From Clostridia bacterium (GTDB taxonomy: Bacteria; Bacillota; Clostridia; Christensenellales; QALW01): a stretch of DNA of 64,000 bases. This document shows positions 5,666-56,898 of the stretch, piece after piece. The position numbers and the translations under genes were made by a program. The DNA lies in NCBI GenBank assembly GCA_045630945.1, contig JAZQTV010000108.1, positions 39,094 through 103,093 of the forward strand, written 5' to 3'. A model generated the notes under the pieces. That model searched no databases and was not told the DNA's origin. It was given only the letters and a program-made list of their open reading frames with translations. Position 1 is the first letter of the stretch. Every line of letters starts with the position of its first letter.

Positions 5666-5677
5666 AAGGAGATATTT

Positions 5678-6268: not shown

Positions 6269-6279
6269 CGCTAATCAAG

Positions 6280-6307
6280 CCGATATGCAAAAGCATATCG
6301 GTTTTTT
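6280..6307 (+). terminator. Intrinsic terminator after ribU
   Basis: ccgatatgc-aaaa-gcatatcgg followed by tttttt. Confidence 0.7.
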
Positions 6308-6372
6308 GTATATAATTCCAATTTAAGCGCATAATAACCTTTGCACCGCTACATATCAAGCGGAGGGAATTT

Positions 6373-7149: not shown

Positions 7150-7159
7150 AAGGAGCTTT

Positions 7160-7717: not shown

Positions 7718-7744
7718 ATAATATATAGTATACTTAACGGGTAA

Positions 7745-7988: not shown

Positions 7989-8003
7989 AAGGAGAGAGAT
8001 TTT

Positions 8004-11113: not shown

Positions 11114-11188
11114 TATCAAGTTTTTACCGATTTTTTATATACAAAAACGGAAAAATATGTTATCATATTACAGAAAGTGGAGTTTTAA

Positions 11189-12226: not shown

Positions 12227-12250
12227 TAATAATTTAGGAGGAAACTCAAA

Positions 12251-12808
12251 ATGATTACAGCAGGTGAATTCAGAAAGGGTATTACAGTAGAAATCGACGG
12301 CAACGTTTATATTATCGTTGAATTCCTTCACGTTAAGCCCGGCAAAGGCGCTGCTTTTGTTAGAACAAAGATTAAGAACGTTATGACAGGTCAGGTGCTT
12401 GAGCGCACCTTCAACCCCAACGAAAAGTATCCCCTTGCCCATATCGAGCGTAAGGAAATGCAGTATCTTTACAACGATGAAGGTCTTTACTACTTCATGG
12501 ATAACGAGACCTATGAGCAGATCGCACTTGATAAGGAATCAGTTGATTCAGCACTTCCCTATCTCAAGGATAACCTTGAGGTTACAATTAAGTTCTATAA
12601 GGGTGCTGCTTTCTCAGTTGATGCACCTAACTTTGTTGAGTTTGAGATTATCGATGCTGAACCCGGTGTTAAGGGCGATACAGCTACAAACGTAACAAAG
12701 CAGGCTACCATTGAAACAGGCTTCAAGGTAAACGTACCCCTGTTCGTAAACGTTGGCGACCGTATCAGAATCGATACCCGTACAGGCGAATATATGGATC
12801 GCGTATAA
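12251..12808 (+). CDS. efp: Elongation factor P
   Basis: [43 protein letters not shown]... is a canonical EF-P. A strong RBS (AGGAGG) lies upstream. Confidence 0.95.
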
Positions 12809-12823
12809 TTTGGAGGTTTTTAA

Positions 12824-13285
12824 ATGTCAGTAGAAAAGAAAGTTCAATATCTTAAGGGCCTTGCAGACGGTCTTGATATTAATAGCGATACCAAAGAAGG
12901 TAAGCTTTTGCTTGCCATAATCGACACACTTTCATCCATCGCTAACGAGCTTGAGGACGTTGATGATGAACTTACACAGCTTGGCGAATACGTTGAAGAG
13001 CTTGACAACGATCTTTTAGAGGTTGAAGAGTATCTTTACGATGATGACGATGATTGTGATTGTGATTGCTGTGACTGCGATTGTGACGATGACGATTGCT
13101 GCTGCTGCGATTGCGATGATGACGATGATGATTGTTGCTGCTGTTGCTGTGACGACGATGATGACGATTTTGAGTATACAGAGTACGTTTGCCCTGCATG
13201 CAAGGAAACCGTTTCATTCTCAGGCGAATTTGCAGACGATGAGTTTGTTTGCCCCAGCTGCGGTGCAAAATTAGAAGAAGCTTAA
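12824..13285 (+). CDS. CD1247 N-terminal-domain-like small protein with a 43-residue Asp/Cys-only tract and a C-terminal zinc ribbon
   Basis: N-terminus is YLKGLADGLDINSDTKEGKLLLAIIDTL... A D/C-only tract follows, then CPACKE...(17)...CPSCG. GGAGG RBS. Position just after efp. Confidence 0.6.
   Translation: MSVEKKVQYLKGLADGLDINSDTKEGKLLLAIIDTLSSIANELEDVDDELTQLGEYVEELDNDLLEVEEYLYDDDDDCDCDCCDCDCDDDDCCCCDCDDDDDDCCCCCCDDDDDDFEYTEYVCPACKETVSFSGEFADDEFVCPSCGAKLEEA
13040..13168 (+). repeat. In-frame cryptic GAY/TGY trinucleotide tract (26 Asp + 17 Cys, no other residue)
   Basis: The 129 nt are read directly and consist only of GAT/GAC/TGT/TGC codons: DDDDDCDCDCCDCDCDDDDCCCCDCDDDDDDCCCCCCDDDDDD. 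Confidence 0.9.
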
Positions 13286-42992: not shown

Positions 42993-43841
42993 TTATAATT
43001 TTTTGATCGCATCAACCACAGTTTCGCCTGCGGGGCGTTTTTTGATGGATATGTACTTTTCTTCAAGGAATTCTGCGTACTCCTTAAGGAACGGATAGCC
43101 TTTTAATTTATCAAGTTCTGCCTTAAACGTTTCAAGTCCCTCTTCATCGGTGTGGTCGGTTACACCTATGAACTGATCGATAACGTCCTTAAATAGTTCC
43201 ATTTTTTCTGCTTCATCAGGTGTTTGGGGAATAGGCTGAGGCTTTGCAAGCTCAGAAAAGCTACCCTCGCACGCAGTACGAAAATGCAAGAGCATGGTAG
43301 TAGGCAACAGTTCGTTTTTTAAAAGATTTACAATGTTTTCTCTTTTGCCACCGTTTATTATGTAGTTTATCGTGGGAACAACTATATAATATGACTGCGC
43401 GCTTGAAAAATTGGAACGGACTCTTGAAATATTTCTTACCTCGTCCTTTGTAATCTCAAGCACCATTTCACCCTCAAACTCATAAACAAGTCCCGTTTTC
43501 ATAAGGGATTCTATCTGCTCACTAAAAGTAAAAAGTTCCAGTGTGCTATCAGGTTTTCTTACAGAAAGCATCATCAACGCAGATATTTCCGCATTACTAA
43601 GCACATAACCGAGCCAGTTTAAGTCATACTGCTTATAGTCTTTTTTTTCTAACTTTTTTGTATTTACCGCATAATATATTCCGTCACATTTTTTGCCTAT
43701 AACCTTTTCTTTTCTTAACATTTCCATCATCTGCCGTGCAACAGAATAATCACTTTTTAAATGAAATTGAATATCGGCTATCGATACTTTATCCTTGTTT
43801 TTCAAAAAGGCGAATATAATTTTTTTAATTCCTTCTTCCAT
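42993..43841 (-). CDS. Winged-helix (FtsK-gamma/MarR-like wHTH) domain protein, remainder unknown
   Basis: N-terminal VSIADIQFHLKSDYSVARQMMEMLRKEKVIGKK.DGIYYAV has wHTH character. The 200-aa C-terminal part matches no family I recognise. AAGGAGG RBS. It is the last gene of the cluster. Confidence 0.45.
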   Translation of the reverse strand: MEEGIKKIIFAFLKNKDKVSIADIQFHLKSDYSVARQMMEMLRKEKVIGKKCDGIYYAVNTKKLEKKDYKQYDLNWLGYVLSNAEISALMMLSVRKPDSTLELFTFSEQIESLMKTGLVYEFEGEMVLEITKDEVRNISRVRSNFSSAQSYYIVVPTINYIINGGKRENIVNLLKNELLPTTMLLHFRTACEGSFSELAKPQPIPQTPDEAEKMELFKDVIDQFIGVTDHTDEEGLETFKAELDKLKGYPFLKEYAEFLEEKYISIKKRPAGETVVDAIKKL

Positions 43842-43865
43842 ATAAGTCCTCCTTTTTAAGAAAAC

Positions 43866-43887
43866 ACGTGGCGAATTATCGCCACGT
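43866..43887 (-). terminator. Internal hairpin (attenuator / partial terminator) between the Card1-like and wHTH genes
   Basis: Perfect 9-bp stem acgtggcga/tcgccacgt with a 4-nt loop. On the minus strand it is followed by GTTTTCTT and then the RBS of the next gene. Confidence 0.45.
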
Positions 43888-43889
43888 CT

Positions 43890-45125
43890 TTATCTTGACT
43901 TCAAGCCCGCCATAATCTTCAAGAGCTCTTTTTCATTTTTATCGGTAATATTATCTATAACTATTATGCCCATATCCTCAGCACGTTGACGGATGTACTT
44001 GCCTGTTTCATCCATTGCGTCAAGCGCAGTTGCAATAAGCACCTTTTTGGCGTACTTTCCGCCAAAGCGATGCGCAACGGTATTAAGCTTATAAAGCTCC
44101 TCCGCATCGAACGCACCGTTCTTACAGGAAATAAACATAGGCCAGATTCCGCGCATAGCGAGAATATCGATCTCGTTTTCAGTTTCGTATTTAACGTTTA
44201 AAATACCGTCCCAATCAATGCTTACACCGTTTACAACGTCATTGTACATTCTGTTGTTTTTATTATCGGTAGCTTGCTTAACGTAGTGGAACACTATCAT
44301 TTCAAGCACCTGACCTGCCTTGGTAAGACATTTTTTGACCTGCGGATTTTTAAACGTTATTTTGAATTCCGTTTCGTTTGAAGAATATGCGGTAATAACG
44401 CCTGCCTTTTTAAGTGCGGTGATTATATCCTTAAACTCAACGTATTCTTTATTTTTAAGCTGTCTTATAAGCCTGCTGTGCGAAATGCTGATGCTAAGTT
44501 CATTATCGACTGCGCATTCGCTTGCCGCCTGAAATACGTTTATCTGGGTATTCCACTTGCGCACGTCCGTCTTGCAGATATCCCACATTCTTTTGATATC
44601 CTCAACGAACTCACCGTCCATCAGCCACTCGTAAGTACCACGTGAAAACACGTTATTAGTATATTTGATATTTCCACCGTAAATGCGGATATTATCCCTT
44701 ACCGTGATAGCGGGGATACCCTCGGTAACAACGGTAATACCGTCTCTGTCACAATCTTCAACAGTACTGTTTCTTATGTTAAAGCGATGCATCTGTATGT
44801 GGCGCTCCTTATATTTCTCGCTTATTATACCAACCGCCACAAGATACAGGTCTTCACCGCCTGTAAGATCAAATATGCAATCAGGTTCCTCATCCACGAT
44901 TTTAGAAAGCGCATCCACGATACTGTCAAGCTTTTTGGAATCAAGGGGCATAGGAACAAAATCAATATGCTTGTCTCTGTCGGCAAAAAAGCTTTCGTAC
45001 AATTCCGTCTGCTTTATCAATTCCTCACGCCTGTTGCCTATTAAAATTACCTTTTCAGGTGCTTTTGCAAGACAGGCAACAATATTTTCGGTTGCGTTTT
45101 TATCAAAGAACTCAATATACGTCAT
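43890..45125 (-). CDS. Card1/Can2-like CARF + PD-(D/E)xK nuclease-fold protein (DUF1887 family), not CRISPR-associated here
   Basis: Start taken at ATG 45125 (MTYIEFFDKN), 1 nt after the anti-sigma stop. The CARF-like N-domain has ...VILIG... and FDLTGGEDLYLVAVG (compare the NxTGGTK loop of Card1). The C-domain has KAGQVLEMIVFHYV, NEIDILAM...(11)...FISCKNG and LYKLNTVAHRFGGKYAKKVLIAT. These parallel Card1 segments GGWFEEYVY, NELDVIYL...VIECKS and LYKLQAI..KFGLYVK as I recall them. Confidence 0.75.
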   Translation of the reverse strand: MTYIEFFDKNATENIVACLAKAPEKVILIGNRREELIKQTELYESFFADRDKHIDFVPMPLDSKKLDSIVDALSKIVDEEPDCIFDLTGGEDLYLVAVGIISEKYKERHIQMHRFNIRNSTVEDCDRDGITVVTEGIPAITVRDNIRIYGGNIKYTNNVFSRGTYEWLMDGEFVEDIKRMWDICKTDVRKWNTQINVFQAASECAVDNELSISISHSRLIRQLKNKEYVEFKDIITALKKAGVITAYSSNETEFKITFKNPQVKKCLTKAGQVLEMIVFHYVKQATDNKNNRMYNDVVNGVSIDWDGILNVKYETENEIDILAMRGIWPMFISCKNGAFDAEELYKLNTVAHRFGGKYAKKVLIATALDAMDETGKYIRQRAEDMGIIVIDNITDKNEKELLKIMAGLKSR

Positions 45126-45126
45126 T

Positions 45127-45363
45127 TTATTCTTTTGCTTCCAATTCCTCAATCATTGTTTTTTCGTCTTCATCAAAGACTTCGTTTATATCGCAAACGG
45201 CACCAATACCGTTCAAGCCGTCGTGTACGTTCTGAAATGCGCGAACCTTGTTAAAGCAGGTCTGACACCGCAAAATATGTGTGGTAACCTTTGATGCAAG
45301 CTCGCAATCAACCTTTTCGGTGCTAACAAAATCTATTATTTCATCAATTGTCAGATGTTTCAT
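45127..45363 (-). CDS. Small soluble anti-sigma factor, zf-HC2 (ZAS) type
   Basis: 78 aa. MKHLTIDEIIDFV.....HILRCQTC gives an exact H-x3-C-x2-C motif. No TM helix. It overlaps the upstream sigma-like gene by 20 nt. Confidence 0.6.
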   Translation of the reverse strand: MKHLTIDEIIDFVSTEKVDCELASKVTTHILRCQTCFNKVRAFQNVHDGLNGIGAVCDINEVFDEDEKTMIEELEAKE

Positions 45364-46168
45364 TTATATACTCCCGTTTGATAAGATTATTCATTCTGTT
45401 TACCCAGTCGCTTACGGTAGCCGCTCCGCCCTTTTTCATAAAGAACTCACCGTAAGTTACCTGCCCAAGAACACGGCCGTCACCGTATTCCTTTTTTAAG
45501 GCAGTATTTATTTTTTTAATCTGAGCTTCGCTGAATCTCATCCACGGCACACGTTCGGATGCTTTAAATATTACGTTACGCATTTTAAAAAGCGAAAGAT
45601 TTTCAAAATTCTTTACCACAAGTGCCTTGCTCTCGCTATTTGATACGTCAAAGGTAACAAGAATAACCGACTGTGCAAGCCACGTGAGAATTTTATAAAC
45701 GCTTGAATCTGAATTTACCACAATCCTGAAGGATATTTCAAGATTATCGTAAATATGCGGTGACGTTTCATAATCACCTGCGCTTATCATATCCTCTTCC
45801 TCTTCGTAAAAGCCTCGTTCCGAGGAAACCTTTATATATTCTTTACGGGCAAAATCCTTTTTAGTGTTTTTTGCAACCGTAAACATCCAATTTTTGAAGC
45901 CCTCAAAATCCCTGTTCAATTCACCCTCAGGACCGTTCTTCAAAAAGAAATGCGTAACACATTTTTTAATTATTTTATCCATTGATACGGAAAAAATGTC
46001 ATCCTCGTAACCTTTTCCCTTCAACAGACTGTCTGCATAGCACCATTTGGCGATGCTTGCCGTTAAAAGTGCCTGTGCAGATTCAAACATAGTATCGAAC
46101 CGTGCGCCTTTTTCATCAAAAAGCTCTTCAATTATCTGTTCAAATTCTTTTTCAGTAAAGCCTTGCAT
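45344..46168 (-). CDS. Sigma-70-family-like (ECF-type region 2 / region 4) protein, atypically long
   Basis: The region-2-like segment is DDIFSVSMDKIIKKCVTHFF...FKNWMFTVAKNTKKDFARK. The C-terminal region-4.2-like helix is GGAATVSDWVNRMNNLIKRE. It is paired with a ZAS anti-sigma. The call is tentative and by eye only. Confidence 0.45.
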   Translation of the reverse strand: MQGFTEKEFEQIIEELFDEKGARFDTMFESAQALLTASIAKWCYADSLLKGKGYEDDIFSVSMDKIIKKCVTHFFLKNGPEGELNRDFEGFKNWMFTVAKNTKKDFARKEYIKVSSERGFYEEEEDMISAGDYETSPHIYDNLEISFRIVVNSDSSVYKILTWLAQSVILVTFDVSNSESKALVVKNFENLSLFKMRNVIFKASERVPWMRFSEAQIKKINTALKKEYGDGRVLGQVTYGEFFMKKGGAATVSDWVNRMNNLIKREYINETSDN

Positions 46169-46200
46169 TTTGCCGTTCCTTTCATATAATGCTATATTGC

Positions 46201-46229
46201 ATTTTATAACATTTTTCGTAAAAAGTCAA
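46201..46229 (-). promoter_or_regulatory. Sigma-A-type promoter for the sigma/anti-sigma/Card1-like unit
   Basis: On the minus strand: TTGACT(46229-46224), 17-nt spacer, TAAAAT(46206-46201). The -35 context GTATTGACTTT is identical to the promoter at 51364-51392. Confidence 0.5.
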
Positions 46230-46247
46230 TACAGCATCATAGGAACT

Positions 46248-47882
46248 TTAAGGAATATACCGGTATTTCTCACTTGAAAAGCTTATTTTCTGTCCGCGGG
46301 CGCTTACGTCTGCCTGTTCGCCGTCAAATTCAGGGCACAGATAGCTTCTTTCCATTTTCGACCACAAAACGTCCTCACGCATCTGTGTAACGATGCATTC
46401 ACCGGGTGTGATGCTGTTAAGCTTGCTTACAGGCACAAGTGCAACAGTATCCTTTTCGTAGCGTTCGATAGTTTCACCGTTTCCGTTAAGCGCGGACATA
46501 GGCGAAATTATTGTTTTGTACCCGCATTCAAGAGAAAACTCACGCTTAGTTTCAGGATTGTTTGTTCCAAAGAAAATATGTGTATTAAGGTTATCCTTAA
46601 TTATTTCGGCAGTTTCCTTGCCGTACACGTTATTAAGCTGTGCATACGACTGAAGAATAAGCAAAAACCATATATTTCTTCCACCGCAGGCAGATATAAC
46701 CTTGTCAAAATCGTTAAATCTGGGCAAATTTCCGAACTCGTCAAGCAAGAAGTAGAACGGGCGTTCAAGTGAAATGCCTTTTTTACGGGATATTGCTATA
46801 AGCTCGCTGTACAGGTTGCTTAAAAACATACTTATTATCTCGTAATGCAAACATTCCTCATCCTTATACGTTACAAAAATAACCGTAGGCTGATCACCGT
46901 CAAGTTCACTCATTTCAAATGAGTTTGCACAGGTTATTCTGCGCACCGACGTATCACGAAACTTGCTTATTTTTGCCGCAAATGCGGATGAAATACATCT
47001 TCTTGTGTTATCAGCCTGCTCGATTATGCACTTTCTTGCAAGCTGATGCGCCTTTGACGTTTCAATATCTCTGTTACGGAAATATCCGTTATCGTAATTG
47101 GTTTTGCTATCTGAAAAGGAATCGAAAATTCTTAACACGGTATCAAAGGAAAAGTTATCCTCGGTTATTTTTCCCGATGCGCTATCCTCAAGCATACCGT
47201 AGATGATAGCCTTAAACAAATCCCTTGCCGAGTCATCCCAATACGGATCCTTTTGATTGGTTGCGGTAATAACCGTTTGTGAAAGAATGGTTATACCCTT
47301 TTCCACCTCGTCGTAGTATCCGTCCTTCACCTCGAATATATCTCTTTCAAGCTCTGCCTGATCATCATATATCCTGCCGTTAAACTTATTACGGGGACCT
47401 TCAGGAGTCTGCACCGCTTCAATCTGCTTTTCTACCTCAAGACTTTTTTGATAAAGGCGGTAATATTTAGTTAAGGGGTTCCAGCAATCGCTGTGATGAT
47501 AATCGGTAAAGTCAAGAAGTATTACCCTGTACCCTGCGTTTTCAAACTTTTTGGCATTCTTTATATACAGTTCCTGCTTGGGATCGCTTATTACCATACT
47601 TGGCTTATTCTTTTTGTTTAAAAGAACGTTAATGGTAGGGATAACGAAGCCCGTTGTTTTGCCGCTTCGGGTTGCACCTATGGCAAGTAGGTGGGTATTG
47701 GGGGTAAAGGTAACCTCTAATTTACCCTTGGCATCTCTTGTTATACAAATCGGTATGCCGTCAATATTCTGTTTTGAAAGGTTTGAAAACTTATACGTGC
47801 TGCTTCTGTGTGCTGCCACGTATTCTTCAGCACGCGTTATCTTTGCGTTTTCATAATCCTTGAAAATATCGATGTTAAGCAT
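46248..47882 (-). CDS. VirD4/TraG/TraD-type (type IV coupling protein-like) P-loop ATPase lacking transmembrane helices
   Basis: Walker A is LLAIGATRSGKTTGFVIPT. Walker B is PFYFLLDEFGNLP. It also has RNIWFLLILQSYAQLNNVYG (the T4CP arginine/Q-box-like block). There is no N-terminal hydrophobic segment. Its start abuts the stop of the upstream gene. Confidence 0.75.
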   Translation of the reverse strand: MLNIDIFKDYENAKITRAEEYVAAHRSSTYKFSNLSKQNIDGIPICITRDAKGKLEVTFTPNTHLLAIGATRSGKTTGFVIPTINVLLNKKNKPSMVISDPKQELYIKNAKKFENAGYRVILLDFTDYHHSDCWNPLTKYYRLYQKSLEVEKQIEAVQTPEGPRNKFNGRIYDDQAELERDIFEVKDGYYDEVEKGITILSQTVITATNQKDPYWDDSARDLFKAIIYGMLEDSASGKITEDNFSFDTVLRIFDSFSDSKTNYDNGYFRNRDIETSKAHQLARKCIIEQADNTRRCISSAFAAKISKFRDTSVRRITCANSFEMSELDGDQPTVIFVTYKDEECLHYEIISMFLSNLYSELIAISRKKGISLERPFYFLLDEFGNLPRFNDFDKVISACGGRNIWFLLILQSYAQLNNVYGKETAEIIKDNLNTHIFFGTNNPETKREFSLECGYKTIISPMSALNGNGETIERYEKDTVALVPVSKLNSITPGECIVTQMREDVLWSKMERSYLCPEFDGEQADVSARGQKISFSSEKYRYIP

Positions 47883-49526
47883 CTAGCTCACCCCCTCTAT
47901 AAAGCCAAGTCCCTTGCCGCGTTTATGTACGGTAAGATTATTTTCGCTCATAAGCCCTCTTACGCACTCAACCGTAATGATTCTGTCGCCCTCGTACACG
48001 GCGTTTCTTAATGCCGAGTCAACTATCTGGCGGAAGCTTTTTGCATCAAGCGTTGCAAGCACACCGTCAACGCCTTCCTCAAACACCTTGCCGTCAAGAC
48101 CGAACACCTTGGAGCGTACGTTTATTATTGAGCGCACTGCCTGAATTTTTTCTTTTTCGTCCATTCTTCTTGTACGAAGAACGTCACATTCTTCAGAAAG
48201 CTTTTCAAGCACCTGATTTTTCTCGGATGCAAACAGTATGAATACTGCGCCCGAAATATCCATTGATACTGCAGGATTGAACAGCTTGAAGCGTTTTCTG
48301 TACTCGTAATCAAGCAGATTGCTTAAATCATCAAGCATCCCCTTATCAAGCTCCTCGCAGTCCTTTATCATAAACACGGTACGTGCAGTCTTGGTTTCAG
48401 AAAGTCCCCTCAACACAAGGTTTTCACCTGTGCCGGAAAAGTCACGCTGACTCAGCGCGCCCGCATCAAGCTCGATAACAGGAGTATCCTTAAGTCCTTT
48501 TTTGATGGCGTAGTAGTACATATCCCTTACGTACTCCTCTTGCGAAACTATCATCAGGGGTGCGTACGCCCTTTCGGAGCAATTACTTAAAACCGAAAGG
48601 CTTTGAAGTATCTTTTTAATTTCACCCTCGCGCCTTACAGGCACCGAATCAAACAGCTTGGGTTCAAAACTTATTTTTTGCTCCGTCTTAACGTCAAAGG
48701 GAATGTCGTTAAGCTGTGCCGCCACGTCCTTTTGCTTTTTAAGAAGGATTTTTTCCTTATCCTCATCAGAAAGCAAGGGTGAAAAAACCACCTTGGCAAA
48801 TTCCCTGTCGTACACGCCTGCGTTTACGGTACCTAACAGGCAAGCCTTTTCAATTATTCTTGCGCGGCGGTTCTTTTTAGGCATCATACCCTCGCCCGTT
48901 TTTGCTAAAACGTGCTCAAACACGTTTTTAGCACCTGCTGAACGGGACACCGTATAGAGAATATCAAGGTATAAATCCTTGTTCTCTTTATCGTACTTAA
49001 TGCCCATAAGGCAGTTGAACAGGTCGTTCCACCTTGCACCGTGGCGTATTCTTTTTACTGCATTAGGCGCATCCTTATAAATGCTGATGCCGTGATATTC
49101 AAGGAACGAAAGTGTCGCCATAGCCTGCACCGAGCCATGCTCAGACAGGAACACAAGCTCCGTTTCCACGGTCTTGGGTGTAAGCTCGCCCATCCCCTTG
49201 AACAGTTGTTTTTTTATGCTTAACGCTTCACGCTTTTGAGCAAGCAAGGTTTTATCGCATTCACTAAGTCTGATATCCTGTCCACTTTTTTTAGCGAACT
49301 CAATCGTCCTTATAAGCCTTTCGTAGCTCTCGATATTCTTTAAGCCCTTAAGTTGTTCACTTCTTGATTCGAGGTAAAAATCCTTAACGTTTTCTTCATC
49401 AAGGCAGAACACCTCAGCAAGCTCGCGGTATATTTTCTTCAGCGTTTTTTCTTCTACGAAGTCGCCTATAAGCGCTTCAAGAATGAAGAACTGTGTAAGG
49501 AACGGCTCTATTAAGTAGTAATTCAT
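47883..49526 (-). CDS. Hypothetical protein: Sel1-like helical N-part + Clp-D2-like AAA+ module with a degenerate P-loop
   Basis: The C-terminal 230 aa align by eye with the ClpA/B D2 module. Parallels are IELDAGALSQRDF (DMSEY..), VFMIKDCEELDKGMLDDLSNLLD (V.LFDEIEKAH.DV.N.LLQ.LD) and VSMDISGAVFILFASEKN (VDF.NT.IIMTSN). Where GPTGVGKT is expected the sequence reads LMIVSQEE. The N-part GSVQAMATLSFLEYHGISIYKDAPNAVKRIRHGARWND is Sel1-repeat-like. Confidence 0.4.
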   Translation of the reverse strand: MNYYLIEPFLTQFFILEALIGDFVEEKTLKKIYRELAEVFCLDEENVKDFYLESRSEQLKGLKNIESYERLIRTIEFAKKSGQDIRLSECDKTLLAQKREALSIKKQLFKGMGELTPKTVETELVFLSEHGSVQAMATLSFLEYHGISIYKDAPNAVKRIRHGARWNDLFNCLMGIKYDKENKDLYLDILYTVSRSAGAKNVFEHVLAKTGEGMMPKKNRRARIIEKACLLGTVNAGVYDREFAKVVFSPLLSDEDKEKILLKKQKDVAAQLNDIPFDVKTEQKISFEPKLFDSVPVRREGEIKKILQSLSVLSNCSERAYAPLMIVSQEEYVRDMYYYAIKKGLKDTPVIELDAGALSQRDFSGTGENLVLRGLSETKTARTVFMIKDCEELDKGMLDDLSNLLDYEYRKRFKLFNPAVSMDISGAVFILFASEKNQVLEKLSEECDVLRTRRMDEKEKIQAVRSIINVRSKVFGLDGKVFEEGVDGVLATLDAKSFRQIVDSALRNAVYEGDRIITVECVRGLMSENNLTVHKRGKGLGFIEGVS

Positions 49527-49627
49527 AAATCATGCCTCCTTCTGCGCATTCGCAATTTTCTTTCTTCATACAATATAACGTAACTATCCTTGTTTTTTCG
49601 CACACCTCCTAAATATTAAAAATCGGT

Positions 49628-51277
49628 TTAAAACGGAAGCTCATCCTCAAACTCATATGAATCTTCAATTAAATTGAATTTGTTGCGCCACTTTTCATAT
49701 GCATCAAGCAATGCAGGAACGTCCTCAAAAGCATTATTGTTTGCCGTGCGGTGCTGTTTTACCTTTTTTTCATCCAGCTCGATTGCGCCCACAGGCTTGC
49801 CCTCAAAGGATACGCACACAATAGGGTTACTATCCGCCTTCCAATCTATAAGACAGTTGTTAAGCGATTCACCCAGCTTGCGCACTTGTGCAAGGTTTTT
49901 TACCGAAGCAAATTCAAAGCCATCCACCACGGTATCGAAAATATCCTTGTGGGGCATACGCATGGGCACGGAAAAATCACAGGCTATTTTGTAATTTTCA
50001 AAATAATCGCCCGACCATTTTTTAATTTCCTTTTTGCGCATCGGCTCACTTAAAAGCGCAAATTCCGATGCGTAAAAGCAAAGTCTTCCCCAGCTGCTTA
50101 TAATGCTATCGGTAAACGTGACCGCCGAAACGTTTTTGGAATATTCGTTAAGGAACGTATCAAGCGCAGGCTTTATTTTAAGATCGCTTAAAATTTTAAA
50201 TGCGGACTTTGATTTTAACACCTTTAAAAAGCAATCAACGTTGTTTGTATAACTGAAAAGCAGTTCGCATTCGTTTTTATAAAACAAAAGTTCGGGGTTT
50301 ATAAAAAATTGCTTTCTTACCGATTTCGCCCTGGGCAGAGTACTGTTTTCGTATAAGCTTATTGCTTTTTCGGGATTTTTAAGATTTTTCTTAACGCCTG
50401 TAAACGAACTGTCAACCTGACGCACAACCTGCCAGAAGCTACCTGCTTCTTCCCTTTCGGTAACGTACGGAATTGCATTATAAAATCCCTTATCAAAGCC
50501 TGTGAACTGTGTGTATGTAATAAGCTTTTCTATATCAAGCATTCCGTCATTTTTGATTTCAAGAAGCTTTTTAATGGCTTTATTCACTCTTGAATCAGTT
50601 TTAAGCACCGTATCAACTGCACTTGAAGTAAGAATATACGGGTACTTGGTAATATCGCGCTTTATAAACACCCTGTTTTCCTTATCCGATACCTCCACGT
50701 AGGTTTTACCCTTTTTCACGTTGAATATGAGGTGTTGATATATAGGGAAATTTATAACCGCATTACCGACAAGCTGCTCAAGCACAGGCATTTCTTTCAT
50801 ATTTATTATCTCGCAGGAAACAGTTAATTTACCACGCCTGAAATACACGCTTACGTCGCGCATAGTTATATACGGCATAGAAACCTTTGAGCATCTTGGG
50901 CACTTAAACGCACCCTTTGGCTTAACAAACGGATTGAATACAAGGTCTCTTTCATCCTCGCAGAGCATACGCATCTGTCTTTCGCCCCATTTTTCCACTC
51001 TGCTTCGCTTTATAAGTCCGTGTTCTTTTTTATTGGTTGAAAAAATGGGATTAAGGAAACGTGCATATGCAGGTACCCTGTTAAGACAATGCGGACATTC
51101 AACGTAGTGCTGTGTAAGCACCGCGGTGTTTTTATCGTCGTTTCTTATTGCCTCGGTAAACCTTCTTTGCAACTTGCCAAGAAGCAGTTCTACAGCAATA
51201 TCTATTGAAATTTCCTTTTCACGCTTCTTTAAAATATAGCCGTCTGCAAGCTGGAAGTTGAATTTTTCTCTTTTCAC
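49628..51277 (-). CDS. PcfJ-like domain protein with an N-terminal zinc ribbon
   Basis: GTG start with a GGAAAGGA RBS. It has CPHC...(about 63)...CPRC. The C-terminal KNLAQVRKLGESLNNCLIDWKADSNPIVCVSFEGKPVGAIEL resembles the PcfJ-like core (L..EG..M.HCV..Y...I..v). An acidic tail follows. Confidence 0.5.
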   Translation of the reverse strand: MKREKFNFQLADGYILKKREKEISIDIAVELLLGKLQRRFTEAIRNDDKNTAVLTQHYVECPHCLNRVPAYARFLNPIFSTNKKEHGLIKRSRVEKWGERQMRMLCEDERDLVFNPFVKPKGAFKCPRCSKVSMPYITMRDVSVYFRRGKLTVSCEIINMKEMPVLEQLVGNAVINFPIYQHLIFNVKKGKTYVEVSDKENRVFIKRDITKYPYILTSSAVDTVLKTDSRVNKAIKKLLEIKNDGMLDIEKLITYTQFTGFDKGFYNAIPYVTEREEAGSFWQVVRQVDSSFTGVKKNLKNPEKAISLYENSTLPRAKSVRKQFFINPELLFYKNECELLFSYTNNVDCFLKVLKSKSAFKILSDLKIKPALDTFLNEYSKNVSAVTFTDSIISSWGRLCFYASEFALLSEPMRKKEIKKWSGDYFENYKIACDFSVPMRMPHKDIFDTVVDGFEFASVKNLAQVRKLGESLNNCLIDWKADSNPIVCVSFEGKPVGAIELDEKKVKQHRTANNNAFEDVPALLDAYEKWRNKFNLIEDSYEFEDELPF

Positions 51278-51321
51278 GTTAATGCACGTCCTTTCCGTTT
51301 ATATTATAAACGTTTTAATCC

Positions 51322-51334
51322 TGCGAATTTCGCA
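51322..51334. promoter_or_regulatory. Perfect palindrome in the leader of the PcfJ-like gene (candidate operator)
   Basis: TGCGAA-T-TTCGCA, located between the -10 box (51364) and the start codon (51277). Confidence 0.3.
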
Positions 51335-51363
51335 AGCATAGAAAAATTTAGTGAGGGAACGAA

Positions 51364-51392
51364 ATAATATCACATTTTTTTATTAAAGTCAA
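51364..51392 (-). promoter_or_regulatory. Near-consensus extended -10 sigma-A promoter for the PcfJ-like/AAA+/T4CP-like unit
   Basis: On the minus strand: TTGACT(51392-51387), 17-nt spacer ending in TGA, TATTAT(51369-51364). The context is GTATTGACTTT. Confidence 0.55.
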
Positions 51393-51400
51393 TACCATTT

Positions 51401-51436
51401 AAAAAAAATTACACTCTGCAAAAAAATTGCAGAGTG
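51401..51436 (-). terminator. Intrinsic terminator ending the permease/C26/TIR/GATase operon
   Basis: cactctgc(51412-51419)/gcagagtg(51429-51436). On the minus strand it is followed by TAATTTTTTTT. Confidence 0.7.
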
Positions 51437-51442
51437 CATATT

Positions 51443-52477
51443 TTAAATCTTAAATAAATATTGGGGTGCAGTAACCGTTTCGTTTGCGCCTTCACGTATA
51501 ACCGTGCGTTTTTTTAAAACGCCCTGCTTATCAAGCGTTTGAAGTGCTTCGTATGTAAGCGGGTAATCCGAATACCCTTCATACCCATCAAGCACCGTAT
51601 CCACCGCATCAACACATTGCCAGAAATCAAGTTCATTCTTTTCAAGCGCACCTTTAAGTGCGCCGTACGCCCTGATACGTGATTCGGTATCCATAGGTTT
51701 TACGCTTAAGGGTGCGCTAAAGGGTGCGATTTCAACGTGATCGGCATATATTTTACCCGATGAGCAGGCAGGTATAAGCACTGCTTCTGAAGCATCCCCA
51801 GGGAACTTATCGGGCATTGAAGCCACGTATGCGCCGTGGGATGCAAAGCTTACGTACAGGGGAGCATCTATTCTTGCAAAGGATATGGCATCCGGTTCAT
51901 CCGTATTAATGCTAAGCCCCACTATTTCGGCAGGCATCTTACAAAACGCTTTTGCCATAGCCTGCGCACCGTCGTCACCACGTTCCTTATTGCTTGCAAT
52001 AAGGTGACACATAACGTCACTTATGTGCAGATATGCGCCGTCTGCAAGCTGAGGATAATGCTCACTTTCTATGCCCGTAAGATACGAATGCATAATTCTG
52101 CCGCCTTCGTGAAGGCTTCGGGCTATTTTTTCATACTCGCGCAGATTTCCTTTAAAAAATCCGTTACTACCCGTTGCGGCGTATGCAAGATATGGCTTGC
52201 CGTCAAAATCGCTTACGAACGGTTGCGCCCAATTATCACCGCCGCCTGCATTTGAACGGCTATGTATTATACCTAAATTGCCGGAGAAATTTTTTCCGTC
52301 AGTTTTTTCTAAAAGATCGCTTAACGCACCTGTAAGCTTTGCAAGGTTCATTTTACCGTCACAAATAGTGGTTATGCCTGTGTAATACCCCCCTGCATAA
52401 GCTTCTTGTTTTCTTATGAGCTCAATAAGAATAGGCGCCGCGGCTTTTTTGCCTACGTAACCTGCCATATTGCACAT
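51443..52477 (-). CDS. Class II (Ntn-type) glutamine amidotransferase-domain protein with an unknown C-terminal domain
   Basis: MCNMAGYVGKKAAAPILIELIRKQE...GIIHSRSN parallels the GlmS/PurF-type N-terminus (MCGIVGYVG..AAPIL..L..LEYRG...GIGHTRWA). No SIS domain is present. The last 130 aa or so are unassigned. Confidence 0.6.
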   Translation of the reverse strand: MCNMAGYVGKKAAAPILIELIRKQEAYAGGYYTGITTICDGKMNLAKLTGALSDLLEKTDGKNFSGNLGIIHSRSNAGGGDNWAQPFVSDFDGKPYLAYAATGSNGFFKGNLREYEKIARSLHEGGRIMHSYLTGIESEHYPQLADGAYLHISDVMCHLIASNKERGDDGAQAMAKAFCKMPAEIVGLSINTDEPDAISFARIDAPLYVSFASHGAYVASMPDKFPGDASEAVLIPACSSGKIYADHVEIAPFSAPLSVKPMDTESRIRAYGALKGALEKNELDFWQCVDAVDTVLDGYEGYSDYPLTYEALQTLDKQGVLKKRTVIREGANETVTAPQYLFKI

Positions 52478-52489
52478 TTATTTTTCCCC

Positions 52490-54142
52490 CTATTTGTATG
52501 ACCAATTCTGATTAGAAAGTCTGATTCTTGAAACCTTACCCGTTTCCTTCTCCATATCTATGTTGATACTGTAATCTCTTTCCTTGTATTCGGAATATGA
52601 CCACATATGTGAATACGAGCCCTCATAATAATCAAGTTTATCAGACGAACTGTTTATACTGTCAAAGGAGCTATTGAAATCCACACCCAACGCTATCTGC
52701 ACGTTCACCTTATCGTAATCTGACACACTAACCGTATATACTGCGCAGTTTTCAACAGCAACCTGATATTCGGAATAATTTTTCACTATCACAGAAAGCC
52801 TCGCTTCACCCTTACTTAACGTAATGCTTGCAGTATTACCCGCAGGAACGTCGCCTGAGCTTTCCTTAATATTCCAGCCATCATTAATAAATTCACTTAC
52901 AGGTGCGGGTAATTCGTACAGCTTGCCTTCAACGGAAATAACGCTTGAAAATCCGCTTCCCATACTACTTGGTGCAACGTATTTTGATAAATATTCAGGT
53001 CTTTCAGTCTTTGTTTCGGTTTTTTCGTTGCTTTCCTTTTGATTGATAACGGTAATACTTGAATACTTAAGGTAGTCTGCTTTCGTATAGCACATAAACG
53101 AAACGCCGTTACTGTTGTTTTTATCACTGTAATATCTTAACGAAACGTAATCGGTACCGTCGTTTCTGTATCCGGGTGCGCCGTAAGCTTCAACTATTGC
53201 ATCAACGTCCGATAAAACAGTTATTCCTTTTGCAAGCTTGATATCGGTTATACTGCCATCCCATTCGATACCGCCCACAAGACAATCCTTAACCTCTCTT
53301 GCGTGACCGCTTGTGTTATATACCATTACGCCGATTTTCTTGCCGTTTTTGGACATATTGAAACTAAGAGTTTCTTTACCAAGAACCTTTGAGGTATCGC
53401 TTGTGCCTGATGAAGATATTGTCCAACCCATATTGCTTAAAACGGAATAATCGCAGGGAAGCTGAATGATTCCATCGCCCATATCAATGGTGAAATCAAA
53501 AAGTTCATCCGACATTTCGGGTGCAATGTAAACAGGCGGAAGCATATCTGAAGGATTTTCCGTTGCCGTAGGCGAGGATGCATCATCCTTATCCTTAGGA
53601 AGCGCAACGGTAATTACTATCGCAATTACAAGAACTATCGCAACCGCAATCAAGAAGAACGTTTTGCTTTTAAAGAAGCTTACCTCCTCCTTTTTCTCCT
53701 CTTTCTTTTCAGGTGTGCTTGCGGTAAAGCTTATACCGTCGCCACCACCAATAATGCCCTTTAATTCGCGAAGCATTTTTTCAATGGCGGCAGATTTATT
53801 TTCATATGCCGCATAACGCTGAACGTTTGTAAGGTAGAAATTAAAGTCATCCTTAAGCTTACAGTTTTCAAGCATAAACGGCAATATAACCTTGCCTTCG
53901 TTTATGGCGATATCAACCTCTCTTGAAACCCACTTGGATGCCTGTGATTTTGAGGATAAAATAAGCACAAACGCTTTTGCGCCCCTTATTGCCTGAGGTA
54001 TTTCGGAAGCGTAGCTTGCGCCGCCCTGAATGCAATCGGGTGCCATCCAACAGGAAATTCCGTTTGCCTCAAGCACGTCCCTTACCCAACGTGCTTCTTC
54101 AAGCTCTTCAGCCTTATAGCTTATAAATACGTCCTTCTGCAT
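52490..54142 (-). CDS. TIR-domain protein with a single TM helix and two tandem extracytoplasmic repeat domains
   Basis: N-terminal TIR_2 pattern: DVFISYKAEE...A.WV...L...GISCWMAP.....G..Y..EI..AI..AK.FVLILS..S..SKWVSREVD (Glu75 at the catalytic-Glu position). The TM helix FFLIAVAIVLVIAIVITVAL spans residues about 161-181 (nt about 53600-53662). Two domains of about 150 aa follow that align to each other (GIIQLPCDYSVLSNMGWTISSSG.../GKLYELPAPVSEFINDGWNIKESSG..., ending ITVINQ / IRLSNQ). Confidence 0.8.
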   Translation of the reverse strand: MQKDVFISYKAEELEEARWVRDVLEANGISCWMAPDCIQGGASYASEIPQAIRGAKAFVLILSSKSQASKWVSREVDIAINEGKVILPFMLENCKLKDDFNFYLTNVQRYAAYENKSAAIEKMLRELKGIIGGGDGISFTASTPEKKEEKKEEVSFFKSKTFFLIAVAIVLVIAIVITVALPKDKDDASSPTATENPSDMLPPVYIAPEMSDELFDFTIDMGDGIIQLPCDYSVLSNMGWTISSSGTSDTSKVLGKETLSFNMSKNGKKIGVMVYNTSGHAREVKDCLVGGIEWDGSITDIKLAKGITVLSDVDAIVEAYGAPGYRNDGTDYVSLRYYSDKNNSNGVSFMCYTKADYLKYSSITVINQKESNEKTETKTERPEYLSKYVAPSSMGSGFSSVISVEGKLYELPAPVSEFINDGWNIKESSGDVPAGNTASITLSKGEARLSVIVKNYSEYQVAVENCAVYTVSVSDYDKVNVQIALGVDFNSSFDSINSSSDKLDYYEGSYSHMWSYSEYKERDYSINIDMEKETGKVSRIRLSNQNWSYK

Positions 54143-54159
54143 AAATACAAACCTTTCAT

Positions 54160-54816
54160 CTATAAATTATTTGTAGTTAAATTACACATTTTAATAAAAT
54201 ATTCGAATATGCTTTTTCCGTCAACAGTATCTGATCTTAAATGCTCACCGCACATACGCTCAGGATGAAACTGCACCGCAATTACAGGAAGCACCGTATG
54301 CTCAATAGCCTCAACTATCCTTCCGCACCTTGCAGTAACGTTAAAGCCGTCACCCAGCGTGTTTACCGCCTGATGATGATTACTGTTTACATAAAACTCT
54401 TCACCGTACAAGTCCTTTAAAATACCAAAAGCACAAATCTTATGCACCGCATCACCCTGCTTTTGATGCTTATCCCGTTCCTTTATATCCTGAATAAGCG
54501 TTCCGCCAAAATACACGTTAAGCATTTGAAGTCCACGGCAAATACCTAAAACGGGCAGCCTTCTTTTAACAAAATACTCTGTTAAAAGCAGTTCTTCCTT
54601 ATCCCGATTTTTATCAATGCCTACCGCACCGCTAACGACTTCACCGTAAATTGACGGTTCGATATCACCGCCGCCGCAAAGAATGAGTCCGTCATAGCTT
54701 GTGCCAATGCAAAATTCCTTTTTTGCAATACCGCCCGCGCAATTTACCGCACTTAAATAATTTTCGGTTTTAAGATTTCCCGAAAGTAATATAACAGGTT
54801 TTTTCATATTTATCAC
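54160..54816 (-). CDS. Gamma-glutamyl-gamma-aminobutyrate hydrolase-like peptidase C26 (class I glutamine amidotransferase fold)
   Basis: PVLGICRGLQMLNV (nucleophile elbow), NSNHHQAV and QFHPE (His-Glu). Confidence 0.8.
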   Translation of the reverse strand: MINMKKPVILLSGNLKTENYLSAVNCAGGIAKKEFCIGTSYDGLILCGGGDIEPSIYGEVVSGAVGIDKNRDKEELLLTEYFVKRRLPVLGICRGLQMLNVYFGGTLIQDIKERDKHQKQGDAVHKICAFGILKDLYGEEFYVNSNHHQAVNTLGDGFNVTARCGRIVEAIEHTVLPVIAVQFHPERMCGEHLRSDTVDGKSIFEYFIKMCNLTTNNL

Positions 54817-54842
54817 CTGTTAAATTATATGCCTAAGCTTTA

Positions 54843-55979
54843 TCAGATTGCCTTTAAAACAAGCATAAGCCCCGTAAGAATTATAAGAAAACCAAAGTTA
54901 AACAGTGAAAACATACCGATGTAATGCCCCGTCTTATCGGGATTATGCTTTACGTATTCACGGAACGTTATCAAGCTTGCAAGTGACGAAATAAGCGTAC
55001 CAACACCACCGATATTTACGCCAACCAGCAAATCGGCATAATTCCCCGTGAACTGCGAAAGCAGAATAGCCGACGGAACGTTACTTATAAACTGACATGA
55101 AACAACGCTGAATAAAAGCGTATTTTTCTGCAACAGCCAAGAAAAGCCGTTTCTTATTGCTTCTATCCTTGCCATATTGCCTGCAAAGATAAAGAAAAAT
55201 ACAAAGGTGAAAAGCAAGCCGTAATCCACCATTTTGAGTGCTTTTCTATCAACAATCATCAGCACCGTGGGAATTACTATAAGCCCTATCCAATAAGGAA
55301 TACCCCTAAACACAATTACAATGGAAAGCGCAAAAAGGACAAGATATAAAACCGTGCGTTTGGGGTCAAGCACTATACGCTCATCATCAAGGCTTAACGG
55401 CTCGGGCTTTACAAAAATAATACAACACAAGGTTATTAAAAGCACCGAAATAACGAACGGAGGTGCCATAATAGTCATAAATTCAAGATTAGGTATTTCA
55501 AACCGTGTGTACAGATACAGGTTTTGAGGATTACCAAAGGGTGTAAGCATTCCGCCTAAATTTGCGGCAATGTTCTGCATAATAAAGGTGAACGCCATAT
55601 ACTTTTCCTTACCTGTTGAGGTAAGCACGAAAAACCCAAGCGGCAAAAACGTCAATAACGCCATATCGTTTGCAATCAGCATTGAGCCGATAAACGTAAT
55701 GTACACAAGCGCAAGCACGCTCATCCTTGCTGTTTTAAAAAGCCGAACTACCTTTCTTGCAAGCATATAAAAGAAGTTAATATTCTTTAATGCGCAAACC
55801 ACCGCAAGCACGCAGAAAAGACAGGTAAGCGTTTTATAATCAAAATACCCCAGATATTCCTTATCAACGGGAATAAAAATACTTGTTATTACCGCCGCTA
55901 TAAAAGCAATACACATAACTGCATTCTTTTTAACAAACGCAATTATTTTATCCCGCGCCGAAGATACTTTATTTTCCAT
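54843..55979 (-). CDS. Anion permease of the ArsB/NhaD / SLC13 (citrate-transporter-like) superfamily
   Basis: Start at ATG 55979 (MENKVSS) after the AAAGGAAAG RBS. It is polytopic. LIANDMALLTFLP and LTPFGNPQNLYLY are typical motifs of this superfamily. Confidence 0.7.
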   Translation of the reverse strand: MENKVSSARDKIIAFVKKNAVMCIAFIAAVITSIFIPVDKEYLGYFDYKTLTCLFCVLAVVCALKNINFFYMLARKVVRLFKTARMSVLALVYITFIGSMLIANDMALLTFLPLGFFVLTSTGKEKYMAFTFIMQNIAANLGGMLTPFGNPQNLYLYTRFEIPNLEFMTIMAPPFVISVLLITLCCIIFVKPEPLSLDDERIVLDPKRTVLYLVLFALSIVIVFRGIPYWIGLIVIPTVLMIVDRKALKMVDYGLLFTFVFFFIFAGNMARIEAIRNGFSWLLQKNTLLFSVVSCQFISNVPSAILLSQFTGNYADLLVGVNIGGVGTLISSLASLITFREYVKHNPDKTGHYIGMFSLFNFGFLIILTGLMLVLKAI

Positions 55980-56088
55980 TAGTCGCTTTCCTTTATAGAC
56001 GCGCTCACTTCCCAACGCTTACGTTAAAATGTGCCACGGTCACTTACTATCACAAAATTACTTTACTAACTGACGTACGCCACCTTTA

Positions 56089-56117
56089 ATTTTACCACAT
56101 TATTTTTTTTAAAGCAA
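56089..56117 (-). promoter_or_regulatory. Sigma-A-type promoter of the permease/C26/TIR/GATase operon
   Basis: On the minus strand: TTGCTT(56117-56112), 17-nt spacer ending in TGG, TAAAAT(56094-56089). This leaves a leader of about 100 nt before ATG 55979. Confidence 0.45.
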
Positions 56118-56166
56118 GCACCGATTGCTTAAAACAAAGCTTTTGCTTCGTTTTTGAAGCAAACCC

Positions 56167-56193
56167 ATAAAAAATACAGGCCGTAGGCCTGTA
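56167..56193 (-). terminator. Intrinsic terminator after the metallophosphoesterase gene
   Basis: tacaggcc(56175-56182)/ggcctgta(56186-56193). On the minus strand it is followed by TTTTTTAT. Confidence 0.7.
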
Positions 56194-56196
56194 TTT

Positions 56197-56898
56197 TCAT
56201 TCATCTAAAACCAATACGTTTATCTGCTTTGAATCGCAGGTGCCCGCATCAATGGCAATAAGCCCGTTACCGTAATATATATCAGCGCAGCTCATATGCC
56301 GAGTATCATCAATAAGCCTTGCAATAAGCGTGGGCATATGACCGCAAACGACGGTTTTATCCGCTAACGGTCTTTCGCCGGTATATCTTTCGCTCCATTT
56401 TACCCAACGCGCCTTTGCCCATTCTTCGCTTGAGGCTTTTTTTCTTTCTTCCTTGGTATCCCCTATAAACCAGCCGTGCACAAAAAGGTGATTTTCGGTT
56501 TCATAGTAATCCGACGTACTGTTTATAAAATCTACTATTCTGTCTACCGTACGGCTTTTCCCCGAAAAATCGAGGCTATCGTCAACAGGATCGATAAAGT
56601 TGTTGCCAAAGAATTCAGTCAAGGTCTGCACAGTACCGTTTACGTAGTTGTGCATCTGCAACTTACCCGTGTACAGAACCTTTAATAAAAGATCCTCATG
56701 ATTGCCACGCAATAGTACCTTGTTTTCGATTCTTTCAAAGAACTTAAGCACCTGCACATTTTCGGTACCTCTGTCGAAATAATCGCCAAGGCACACCAAA
56801 AGATGCGAGCTGTCGTTTTCATTATAGCCTGCGTTATCAAGTGCGTTTTTTAACAGGGTGTAATGTCCGTGGATATCAGATACGACAAACGTTTTCAT
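56197..56898 (-). CDS. Metallophosphoesterase (Ser/Thr phosphatase / ApaH-PrpE-like)
   Basis: SDIHGH, GDYFDRG, RGNHE and VHGW/CGH are calcineurin-like phosphoesterase motifs. Confidence 0.75.
   Translation of the reverse strand: MKTFVVSDIHGHYTLLKNALDNAGYNENDSSHLLVCLGDYFDRGTENVQVLKFFERIENKVLLRGNHEDLLLKVLYTGKLQMHNYVNGTVQTLTEFFGNNFIDPVDDSLDFSGKSRTVDRIVDFINSTSDYYETENHLFVHGWFIGDTKEERKKASSEEWAKARWVKWSERYTGERPLADKTVVCGHMPTLIARLIDDTRHMSCADIYYGNGLIAIDAGTCDSKQINVLVLDE

Follow-up and report, generated by a model that had tools for sequence, protein, structure and literature searches.

Can a single bacterial gene encode a transmembrane receptor whose output is a TIR domain? This question is raised by an open reading frame on the minus strand (52490-54142) of the window, i.e. 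the whole stretch of 64,000 nucleotides of Clostridia DNA that was analysed. A reading made from the letters without database searches, in the following the sequence-only reading, had proposed for this gene a TIR domain, a single transmembrane (TM) helix and a duplicated extracytoplasmic domain, and Pfam, hydropathy and BLASTP agree with this layout. The complete gene consists of 550 codons, starts with an ATG at 54142, to which the ribosome binding site AAAGG (54152..54156, minus strand) is placed at a distance of 9 nt, and ends with a TAG stop codon (52490-52492). Its product of 550 aa, named here the query protein, is a 100% match to P0001; full-length relatives comprise 549-551 aa. The parts of the gene described below are all encoded on the minus strand.

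The TIR domain, which is predicted to be cytoplasmic, covers residues 1-135 (53738..54142) and was delimited by means of Pfam and of sequence matches to PDB entries. The Pfam model TIR_2 (PF13676) matches residues 5-109 with an E-value of 3.5e-21 and a score of 76.4 bits (cutoff 28 bits), in agreement with the earlier assignment of the N-terminal 130 or so residues to the bacterial TIR_2 type; the Pfam models ThsB_TIR and TIR also score above their cutoffs. When the N-terminal 153 aa were compared with PDB chains, the top sequence matches were AbTir (E 2e-5) and SARM1 (E 4e-5), which are the closest solved structures. In HMMER alignments to these structures, Glu75 (codon 53918..53920) of the segment SKWVSREVD lies opposite the glutamate of DWVHKEIV in SARM1 and of DWTNYELD in AbTir, which we take to be the catalytic residues E642 and E208, respectively. 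Together with Trp71, Glu75 constitutes a WxxxE motif that aligns residue for residue, and the proposal that it occupies the catalytic position of NADases has thus been borne out by alignment. Among the 112 TIR domains of the family, Glu75 is present in all and Trp71 in 109. The query TIR is therewith of the catalytic type; a conserved glutamate by itself is no proof of enzymatic activity. SARM1 and AbTir are soluble proteins, the former regulated by ARM/SAM domains and the latter by a coiled-coil N-terminal region, whereas the query TIR forms the N-terminus of a protein in which a TM helix and an ectodomain follow; the sequence identity of this TIR to both enzymes is low and its activity is putative.

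The TIR domain is followed by a low-complexity, K/E-rich linker (residues 136-160, 53663..53737), which is only 26-42% identical among orthologues, and by the TM helix (residues 161-181, 53600..53662). The latter is the sole hydrophobic segment of the protein (maximum of the Kyte-Doolittle 19-mer 3.38), and a TM segment follows the TIR domain in 112 of 112 relatives with an N-terminal TIR, 101 of which possess exactly one. The query protein contains no N-terminal signal sequence; strand βA of the TIR domain begins already at residue 4. Both the single helix and the missing signal peptide had been noticed in the sequence-only reading. As the TIR domain starts at residue 4 and is not preceded by a signal peptide, the N-terminus should stay in the cytoplasm, and an N-terminus inside combined with one TM helix would place the duplicated module outside. 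Charges are distributed with little bias around the helix (5 K/R vs 5 D/E on the N-terminal side, 2 vs 4 on the C-terminal side); for this reason, the independent support from lipoprotein homologues weighs more. In P0124, P0125, P0127, L016 and many other representatives, the d1-d2 module immediately follows a lipoprotein signal peptide that contains an L-x-G/A-C lipobox, and members of the ectodomain family also occur behind bare N-terminal membrane anchors, which places the module outside the cytoplasm, as had been supposed. Based on hydropathy and on the lipoprotein homologues, the query protein is predicted to be oriented N-in, C-out, with the TIR domain in the cytoplasm and d1/d2 outside.

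The outside part begins with an acidic, Ser/Thr/Pro-containing stalk (residues 182-206, 53525..53599), which has low pLDDT values where the model starts. It is followed by the membrane-proximal copy d1 (residues 207-369, 53036..53524), an inter-domain linker (residues 370-386, 52985..53035) containing TETKTERPEYLSKY, and copy d2 (residues 387-550, 52493..52984), the borders of the two copies being derived from alignments and structure models. The more variable copy is d1; d2 is the C-terminal copy in all relatives. A BLASTP comparison of residues ~191-375 with residues 376-550 gave 27% identity over 183 columns and an E-value of 8e-12. The duplication recognised in the sequence-only reading is real; the size of about 150 aa given there has to be corrected to approximately 165 aa. 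In a single-domain alignment of 37 sequences comprising d1- and d2-type copies, columns P23, G33 and W34 are invariant and N70 and C81 near-invariant, so that each copy has a near-invariant lone cysteine and asparagine; the repeat signature reported before (LP...GW...N...C) corresponds to these conserved columns.

An AlphaFold2 model of both domains, computed with an alignment of 24 sequences, reached a pLDDT of 93.8 and a pTM of 0.84; for d1 alone, the values were 96.6 and 0.91. The predicted d1 fold is of the alpha/beta type with about ten strands and three short helices. For these confident models, Foldseek provided no acceptable neighbour in the PDB: with the two-domain model, only noise (TM ~0.1) was obtained, and the best result for d1, an Rhs immunity protein, was rejected due to a TM value of 0.37 and an E-value of 0.019, the remainder being lipocalin-like noise. 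Searching the PDB chains with the ectodomain sequence and with its profile gave no match either. In a viral library, there was one significant match (TMq 0.60, E 5.8e-4, 15% identity), a gut-virome protein of 292 aa annotated as restriction endonuclease. The modelled fold can thus be called new relative to the PDB only.

Pfam has no match to residues 190-550 and detects neither LRR nor PASTA domains there. DUF4309 (PF14172) was considered as a candidate family and rejected: the query protein has no match, a few distant relatives score 13-15 bits (cutoff 25) over an alpha-beta sub-motif of about 50 residues, and the best E-value among the members of the ectodomain alignment is 4.1e-5, all of these matches being sub-threshold. 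PepSY_2 and Imm33 were dismissed as well, as their matches were sub-threshold. When 1.84 billion cluster representatives (clusters at 50% identity) were searched exhaustively with the profile, 3,501 proteins were found at E<=1e-3, 1,861 at E<=1e-10 and 735 at E<=1e-30. The d1/d2 module is therefore a large, unnamed extracytoplasmic domain family without a Pfam model.

Members of this family differ with respect to copy number and to the part on the other side of the membrane. A single copy (d1 only) exists in P0070, P0113 and P0118, two copies (d1-d2) are arranged as in the query protein, and P0005 and P0006 contain three (d1-d1-d2); the d2 type is invariably the last one. The cytoplasmic parts comprise TIR domains of at least four sequence subtypes, a Zn-ribbon plus a Ser/Thr kinase, a Zn-ribbon alone and low-complexity tails, or are missing. 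Among the best 150 representatives of the ectodomain, approximately 27% possess a TIR domain and 15% a Ser/Thr kinase, the rest being mostly lipoproteins or anchored proteins. Examples of kinases with this ectodomain are P0009, P0014-16, L006, L007 and L014. In its ectodomain, kinase P0009 matches the TIR protein P0003 at 79.5% identity and P0121, which contains only the Zn-ribbon, at 85.5%; the ectodomain of the query protein shares 51% of its residues with that of a kinase and 54% with that of its own orthologue. Recurrent fusion of an ectodomain across the membrane to two unrelated outputs, TIR and Ser/Thr kinase, is a hallmark of a sensor input domain. Fusions to PF04018 (P0024) and FHA (P0126) were not accepted as additional architectures, as the module begins mid-domain in these proteins, which are probably chimeric or truncated calls.

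The TIR module is reused in a similar manner. At 60-81% identity, it occurs in more than 100 Clostridia proteins with C-terminal parts that are LRR, DUF4190 or other unrelated regions; for the 112 relatives with an N-terminal TIR, the median length of the outside part is 435 aa, and most are of the LRR type. Because the same TIR is combined with different ectodomains, the query protein is one member of a family characterised by a constant TIR, one TM helix and a variable ectodomain. The coupling of a sensor outside to a TIR output inside, as put forward in the sequence-only reading, is strengthened by these findings, namely by the 79.5% identical ectodomain on a kinase and by the occurrence of TIR domains with LRR and other ectodomains.

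The two halves of the protein also differ in their rate of divergence. Between the query protein and its orthologue P0002, identity is 86% for the TIR domain, 55% for d1 and 51% for d2; the products of the flanking CitMHS gene and of the neighbouring 344-aa gene are 88% and 76% identical. Considering ranges, ectodomains are 46-55% identical, compared to 69-86% for TIR domains and 78-88% for the flanking CitMHS proteins. A comparison of P0008 and P0011 gave 99% for the TIR domain, 40% for linker plus TM helix, 45% for d1 and 89% for d2. Between P0008 and P0011, d1 was thus exchanged like a cassette; within the protein, it is the outside portion that evolves fast and recombines.

In the window, the neighbours of the TIR gene are a glutamine amidotransferase (GATase), CitMHS and an Ntn-like protein. 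The class-I glutamine amidotransferase / Peptidase_C26 gene (54160..54816, minus strand) lies upstream at a distance of 18 nt and probably shares a transcription unit with the TIR gene. Downstream, after a gap of 13 nt, follows a gene of 344 codons (51443..52477, minus strand) with its own ribosome binding site GGGGG; its product starts with Met-Cys and has weak similarity to the N-terminal Ntn amidotransferase domain of GlmS. Neither of them qualifies as an obligate partner: the amidotransferase is kept only in L002 and L018, and the 344-aa gene only in L002 (76%). The transcription unit is closed by a strong intrinsic terminator (51410..51438, minus strand) with a stem of 12 bp and a T-run, which had been noticed before as separating the TIR gene from a Card1-like cluster. 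Beyond this terminator, there is a promoter-like site, and then a separate cluster encoding two unrelated proteins of about 548 aa without a family match, a TraG/VirD4-like ATPase, a 274-aa protein, a CARF-PD-(D/E)xK nuclease (PADLOC E 2.8e-33) and a small FtsK-gamma/AbiEi-like protein. On the contig L002, which contains a 58% identical orthologue, the gene order is CitMHS, GATase, TIR gene, a 345-aa gene and then GtrA, and the TraG/CARF cluster is absent. The cluster must therefore be regarded as an independent insertion to which the TIR gene does not belong; due to this finding and the intervening terminator, a functional link to the TraG/CARF-nuclease cluster, considered in the sequence-only reading, was discarded.

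Related loci were collected by scanning genomes with an alignment of six ectodomain sequences; the same scan with the query protein alone gave zero relatives. After clustering the neighbours in 16 loci, no recurrent partner gene was detected beyond local synteny, which is consistent with sensor and output being united in one protein. In L001, L002 and L015, the closest relatives, the gene occupies the same chromosomal position beside CitMHS. A downstream reader of TIR-made signals was not detected near the TIR gene.

How does this protein relate to known TIR systems? Sensor-coupled TIR NADase effectors are a known kind, represented by Thoeris, TIR-STING, TIR-SAVED, SPARTA and SARM1. Similarity to ThsB of Thoeris is restricted to 27.4 bits for the ThsB_TIR model (cutoff 21.2 bits) over just 50 residues, and the PADLOC matches to ThsB are weak and domain-level (E 7e-5 to 3e-3); moreover, ThsB lacks the TM helix and the ectodomain of the query protein. 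In agreement with the sequence-only reading, no ThsA (SIR2/SLOG or Macro-TM) adjoins the gene in the window, and the 16 related loci lack it as well. With respect to CBASS and Pycsar, no CD-NTase, nucleotide cyclase or TIR-fused nucleotide-sensing domain was found in the protein or among the genes from 42993 to 56898. Having neither ThsA nor a cyclase, the query protein belongs neither to Thoeris nor to CBASS. PADLOC reported no full-length match to any system; the matches of the TIR are domain-level only.

With respect to topology, the query protein resembles Toll-like and IL-1 receptors, which have the same final arrangement of a sensor outside, one TM helix and a cytoplasmic TIR; in addition, paralogues with 60-80% identical TIR domains bear LRR ectodomains. 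In contrast to Toll-like receptors, the polarity is reversed, as the query protein is of type II with an N-terminal TIR and without a signal peptide, and its ectodomain is neither LRR nor Ig, LRR being present only in the paralogues. Furthermore, it keeps the catalytic glutamate, unlike the TIR domains of TLRs, which serve as scaffolds. PknB/PrkC-type kinase receptors follow the same one-component design, consisting of a cytoplasmic output, one TM helix and repeated extracellular sensor domains, and some such kinases use the same ectodomain family; the query protein differs from PknB/PrkC-type receptors by its TIR output and by an ectodomain that is not PASTA. In the searchable literature, we found no prior description of bacterial membrane-anchored TIR or TIR-TM-ectodomain receptors; the closest case is TirC of Dictyostelium, a TIR NADase that is of bacterial origin and tethered by a TM helix, for which filaments and toxicity were reported after loss of its helix (bioRxiv 10.64898/2026.04.30.722052, PMC13142454). 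The likeness, a catalytic TIR held at the membrane by one helix, is one of described architecture; TirC is eukaryotic and has only the N-terminal helix without an ectodomain, whereas the query protein is bacterial and possesses one.

The interpretation that we favour, with a probability that we judge to be about even, is a one-component outside-in receptor for a surface or envelope cue, the TIR NADase being switched on when ligand binding clusters the protein. The d1-d2 module would bind an extracytoplasmic ligand, most likely a molecule associated with the cell surface or the envelope, and binding would cluster the receptors. Clustering would then assemble the cytoplasmic TIR domains, which may cleave NAD+ as SARM1, AbTir and other catalytic TIRs do, and the outcome would be either a lower NAD+ level, leading to growth arrest, or a signal derived from ADP-ribose. 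The domain layout, the catalytic type of the TIR, the position of the module outside, its reuse with both kinase and TIR, and the missing partner gene follow from the analyses above. That the TIR is enzymatically active, that clustering switches it on, what kind of ligand is bound and what follows for the cell are points that we infer from analogies, namely from SARM1, AbTir and other TIR assemblies, and from kinase receptors requiring ligand-driven dimerisation. A surface or envelope cue is favoured over a phage-specific one because the sensor is common to kinases and lipoproteins. Several considerations count against the receptor explanation: a conserved glutamate is no proof of activity, the orientation is predicted from hydropathy and lipoprotein homologues with little charge bias at the helix, the ectodomain has no structural neighbour hinting at a ligand, and no reader of TIR-made signals was detected nearby. 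Moreover, a lethal NADase that is constitutively present and controlled from outside would be a risk if its gene has a syntenic place in the chromosome.

The same architecture could act as an anti-phage surface sentinel, whose ectodomain would detect phage or envelope damage and whose TIR would deplete NAD+, such that the cell dies before phage release (abortive infection by a single gene). The TIR type is that of Thoeris, SPARTA and retron-TIR, there are domain-level PADLOC/NCBIfam matches to SAVED-TIR, Aga-TIR, ThsB and retron-TIR, and a constant TIR combined with a fast-evolving, cassette-swapped ectodomain, with paralogues bearing other ectodomains, is what an arms race would be expected to produce. 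In six related loci, a second TIR gene with another fused domain (LRR, methyltransferase, TPR) is found at a distance of up to about 6 kb, one locus (L003) also contains MazE and TnpV genes, and in the window the gene adjoins the inserted CARF-nuclease/TraG island. That island, however, is transcriptionally separate and missing from the syntenic L002, where ordinary metabolic genes surround the TIR gene, and L001, L002 and L015 all keep the gene beside CitMHS. As the ectodomain is also present on Ser/Thr kinases and many lipoproteins, which suggests general surface sensing or binding, and as a full-length PADLOC match is lacking, we consider a sentinel rather unlikely. The specifically immune part of the sequence-only reading (phage adsorption, a gene of a defence island) is therefore not supported, in view of the CitMHS synteny and the absence of a recurrent defence partner from the 16 loci. 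An immune role of the receptor is possible; the gene context lends it no support, because close relatives are syntenic beside a transporter gene.

Two further alternatives assign the decisive role to only one half of the protein. The TIR could be a non-enzymatic scaffold, i.e. a homotypic interaction module of the TLR/MyD88 kind that recruits other TIR proteins encoded in the genome. Animal TIR domains are known to operate in this way, and the additional TIR genes adjoining relatives would supply the partners; yet a further TIR or ectodomain gene is absent from the window, the solved structures closest in sequence belong to enzymes, and the catalytic glutamate and the tryptophan four residues earlier are essentially invariant, which is unexpected for a pure scaffold. 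We regard this explanation as improbable. To the same low degree we credit the idea that the outside module is the working part, which would bind cell wall, glycan or another cell at the surface, the TIR being an accessory for tuning or local NAD+ turnover. It accounts for the approximately 40% of the top family representatives that are plain lipoproteins or membrane-anchored proteins without a cytoplasmic signalling domain, and it is compatible with the near-invariant cysteine and asparagine of each copy and with the metabolic neighbour genes; it is at odds with the recurrent fusion to TIR and Ser/Thr kinase described above.

To our knowledge, the characterised bacterial TIR systems all sense intracellular events, i.e. 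phage proteins, nucleic acids or cyclic nucleotides. If the outside-in receptor reading applies, the control of a TIR enzyme from outside, through an extracellular domain acting across the membrane, would be a new input mode for NAD+-based signalling, and it would bear on the origin of the sensor-TM-TIR design of animal innate immunity. What is new here is the TIR-TM-ectodomain variant of a sensor-coupled TIR, and, as a by-product, a new ectodomain family. The identity of its ligand would annotate thousands of proteins (about 3,500 clusters), among them kinases, TIR proteins and lipoproteins from bacteria that are abundant in gut and rumen.

A more far-reaching idea, which we put forward tentatively and with less than an even chance of being right, is that gut Clostridia of the Oscillospirales possess diversified "bacterial Toll-like receptors", in which a constant catalytic TIR plus TM helix was recombined with interchangeable ectodomains, each extracellular cue being reported by NAD+ cleavage. 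The ectodomains of such a repertoire would be LRR, the d1/d2 module and others; conceivable cues are phage particles, competing bacteria, and host or dietary glycans. If this were true, these proteins would be the first class of bacterial transmembrane receptors to signal through a TIR, and the TLR design could have in them an evolutionary analogue or its source. All 13 species-representative loci originate from metagenome-assembled genomes of Clostridia from animal gut or rumen (Oscillospiraceae, Acutalibacteraceae, Ruminococcus and relatives).

The ectodomain of the TIR protein consists of two copies, the membrane-proximal d1 (window positions 53036-53524, minus strand) and the C-terminal d2 (52493-52984, minus strand). 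Each copy contains one near-invariant cysteine, found in the motifs KDC and ENC, respectively, and one conserved asparagine (YNxSG and NYSE). In d2, the cysteine is retained even without a second cysteine being available for a disulfide bond; a conserved cysteine lacking such a partner is unusual in an extracellular domain.

An exchange of an ectodomain copy can be traced in a pair of relatives from outside the window, P0008 and P0011. Their TIR domains are 99% identical and their d2 copies 89%, whereas identity is merely 45% in d1 and 40% in the linker/TM segment. The pair is a clean case in which the membrane-proximal ectodomain has been replaced in a cassette-like manner. Among Clostridia, more than 100 further proteins (P0025-P0120) combine a TIR domain 60-80% identical to that of the query with a TM helix (mostly one) and a C-terminal ectodomain, which is mostly LRR. 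Two database proteins, P0024 and P0126, possess a truncated ectodomain fused to a PF04018 membrane protein and to an FHA-domain protein, respectively. These were set aside, as the ectodomain begins mid-domain; they are probably chimeras of assembly or gene calling and not real architectures.

The sole significant structural match of the ectodomain was the BFVD entry A0A8S5QJ85 of Siphoviridae sp. ctezl47 (292 aa; TMq 0.60, E 5.8e-4, 15% identity), a gut-virome protein annotated as restriction endonuclease. A "lipoprotein" from the same virome contig was found further down the match list. Proteins of phages or prophages may carry the ectodomain module.

Close translational coupling links the TIR gene to a gene (51443-52477, minus strand) for a protein of 344 aa, which starts with Met-Cys. 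It gave no Pfam match and contains no synthase domain; it resembles the glutaminase (Ntn) domain of GlmS, but only weakly. The protein is conserved only at L002, the syntenic locus carrying the 58%-identical orthologue, where identity is 76%. Further downstream, a cluster of six genes (42993-51277, minus strand) encodes a CARF-PD-(D/E)xK nuclease of the Card1/Can2-like type (PADLOC E 2.8e-33), a TraG/VirD4-type coupling ATPase with an additional weak PADLOC match to mad8, a small FtsK-gamma/AbiEi-like protein, a 274-aa protein without assigned family, and two mutually non-paralogous proteins of 549 and 547 aa, for which family searches gave no match. The cluster is preceded by a promoter-like site of its own and has no counterpart at L002, despite the synteny of that locus; it therefore has the appearance of an insertion, either a defence island or a mobile one.

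At locus L001, the genes at 5135-13019, adjoining the orthologue P0004, encode a TIR-methyltransferase fusion, a transglutaminase-core protein, a PrsW protease, a 741-aa protein without assigned family, and a large Tubulin_2-family protein; this unusual gene set resembles conflict-system neighbourhoods. At L002 (3256-4905) and at L015, another close-relative locus (3992-5641), a TIR gene of a subtype other than the query's lies directly upstream of the same CitMHS transporter gene. According to Pfam matches, the L002 product is a TIR-LRR protein, an assignment that covers the L002 gene only. In the window, a metallophosphoesterase gene occupies this place upstream of CitMHS.
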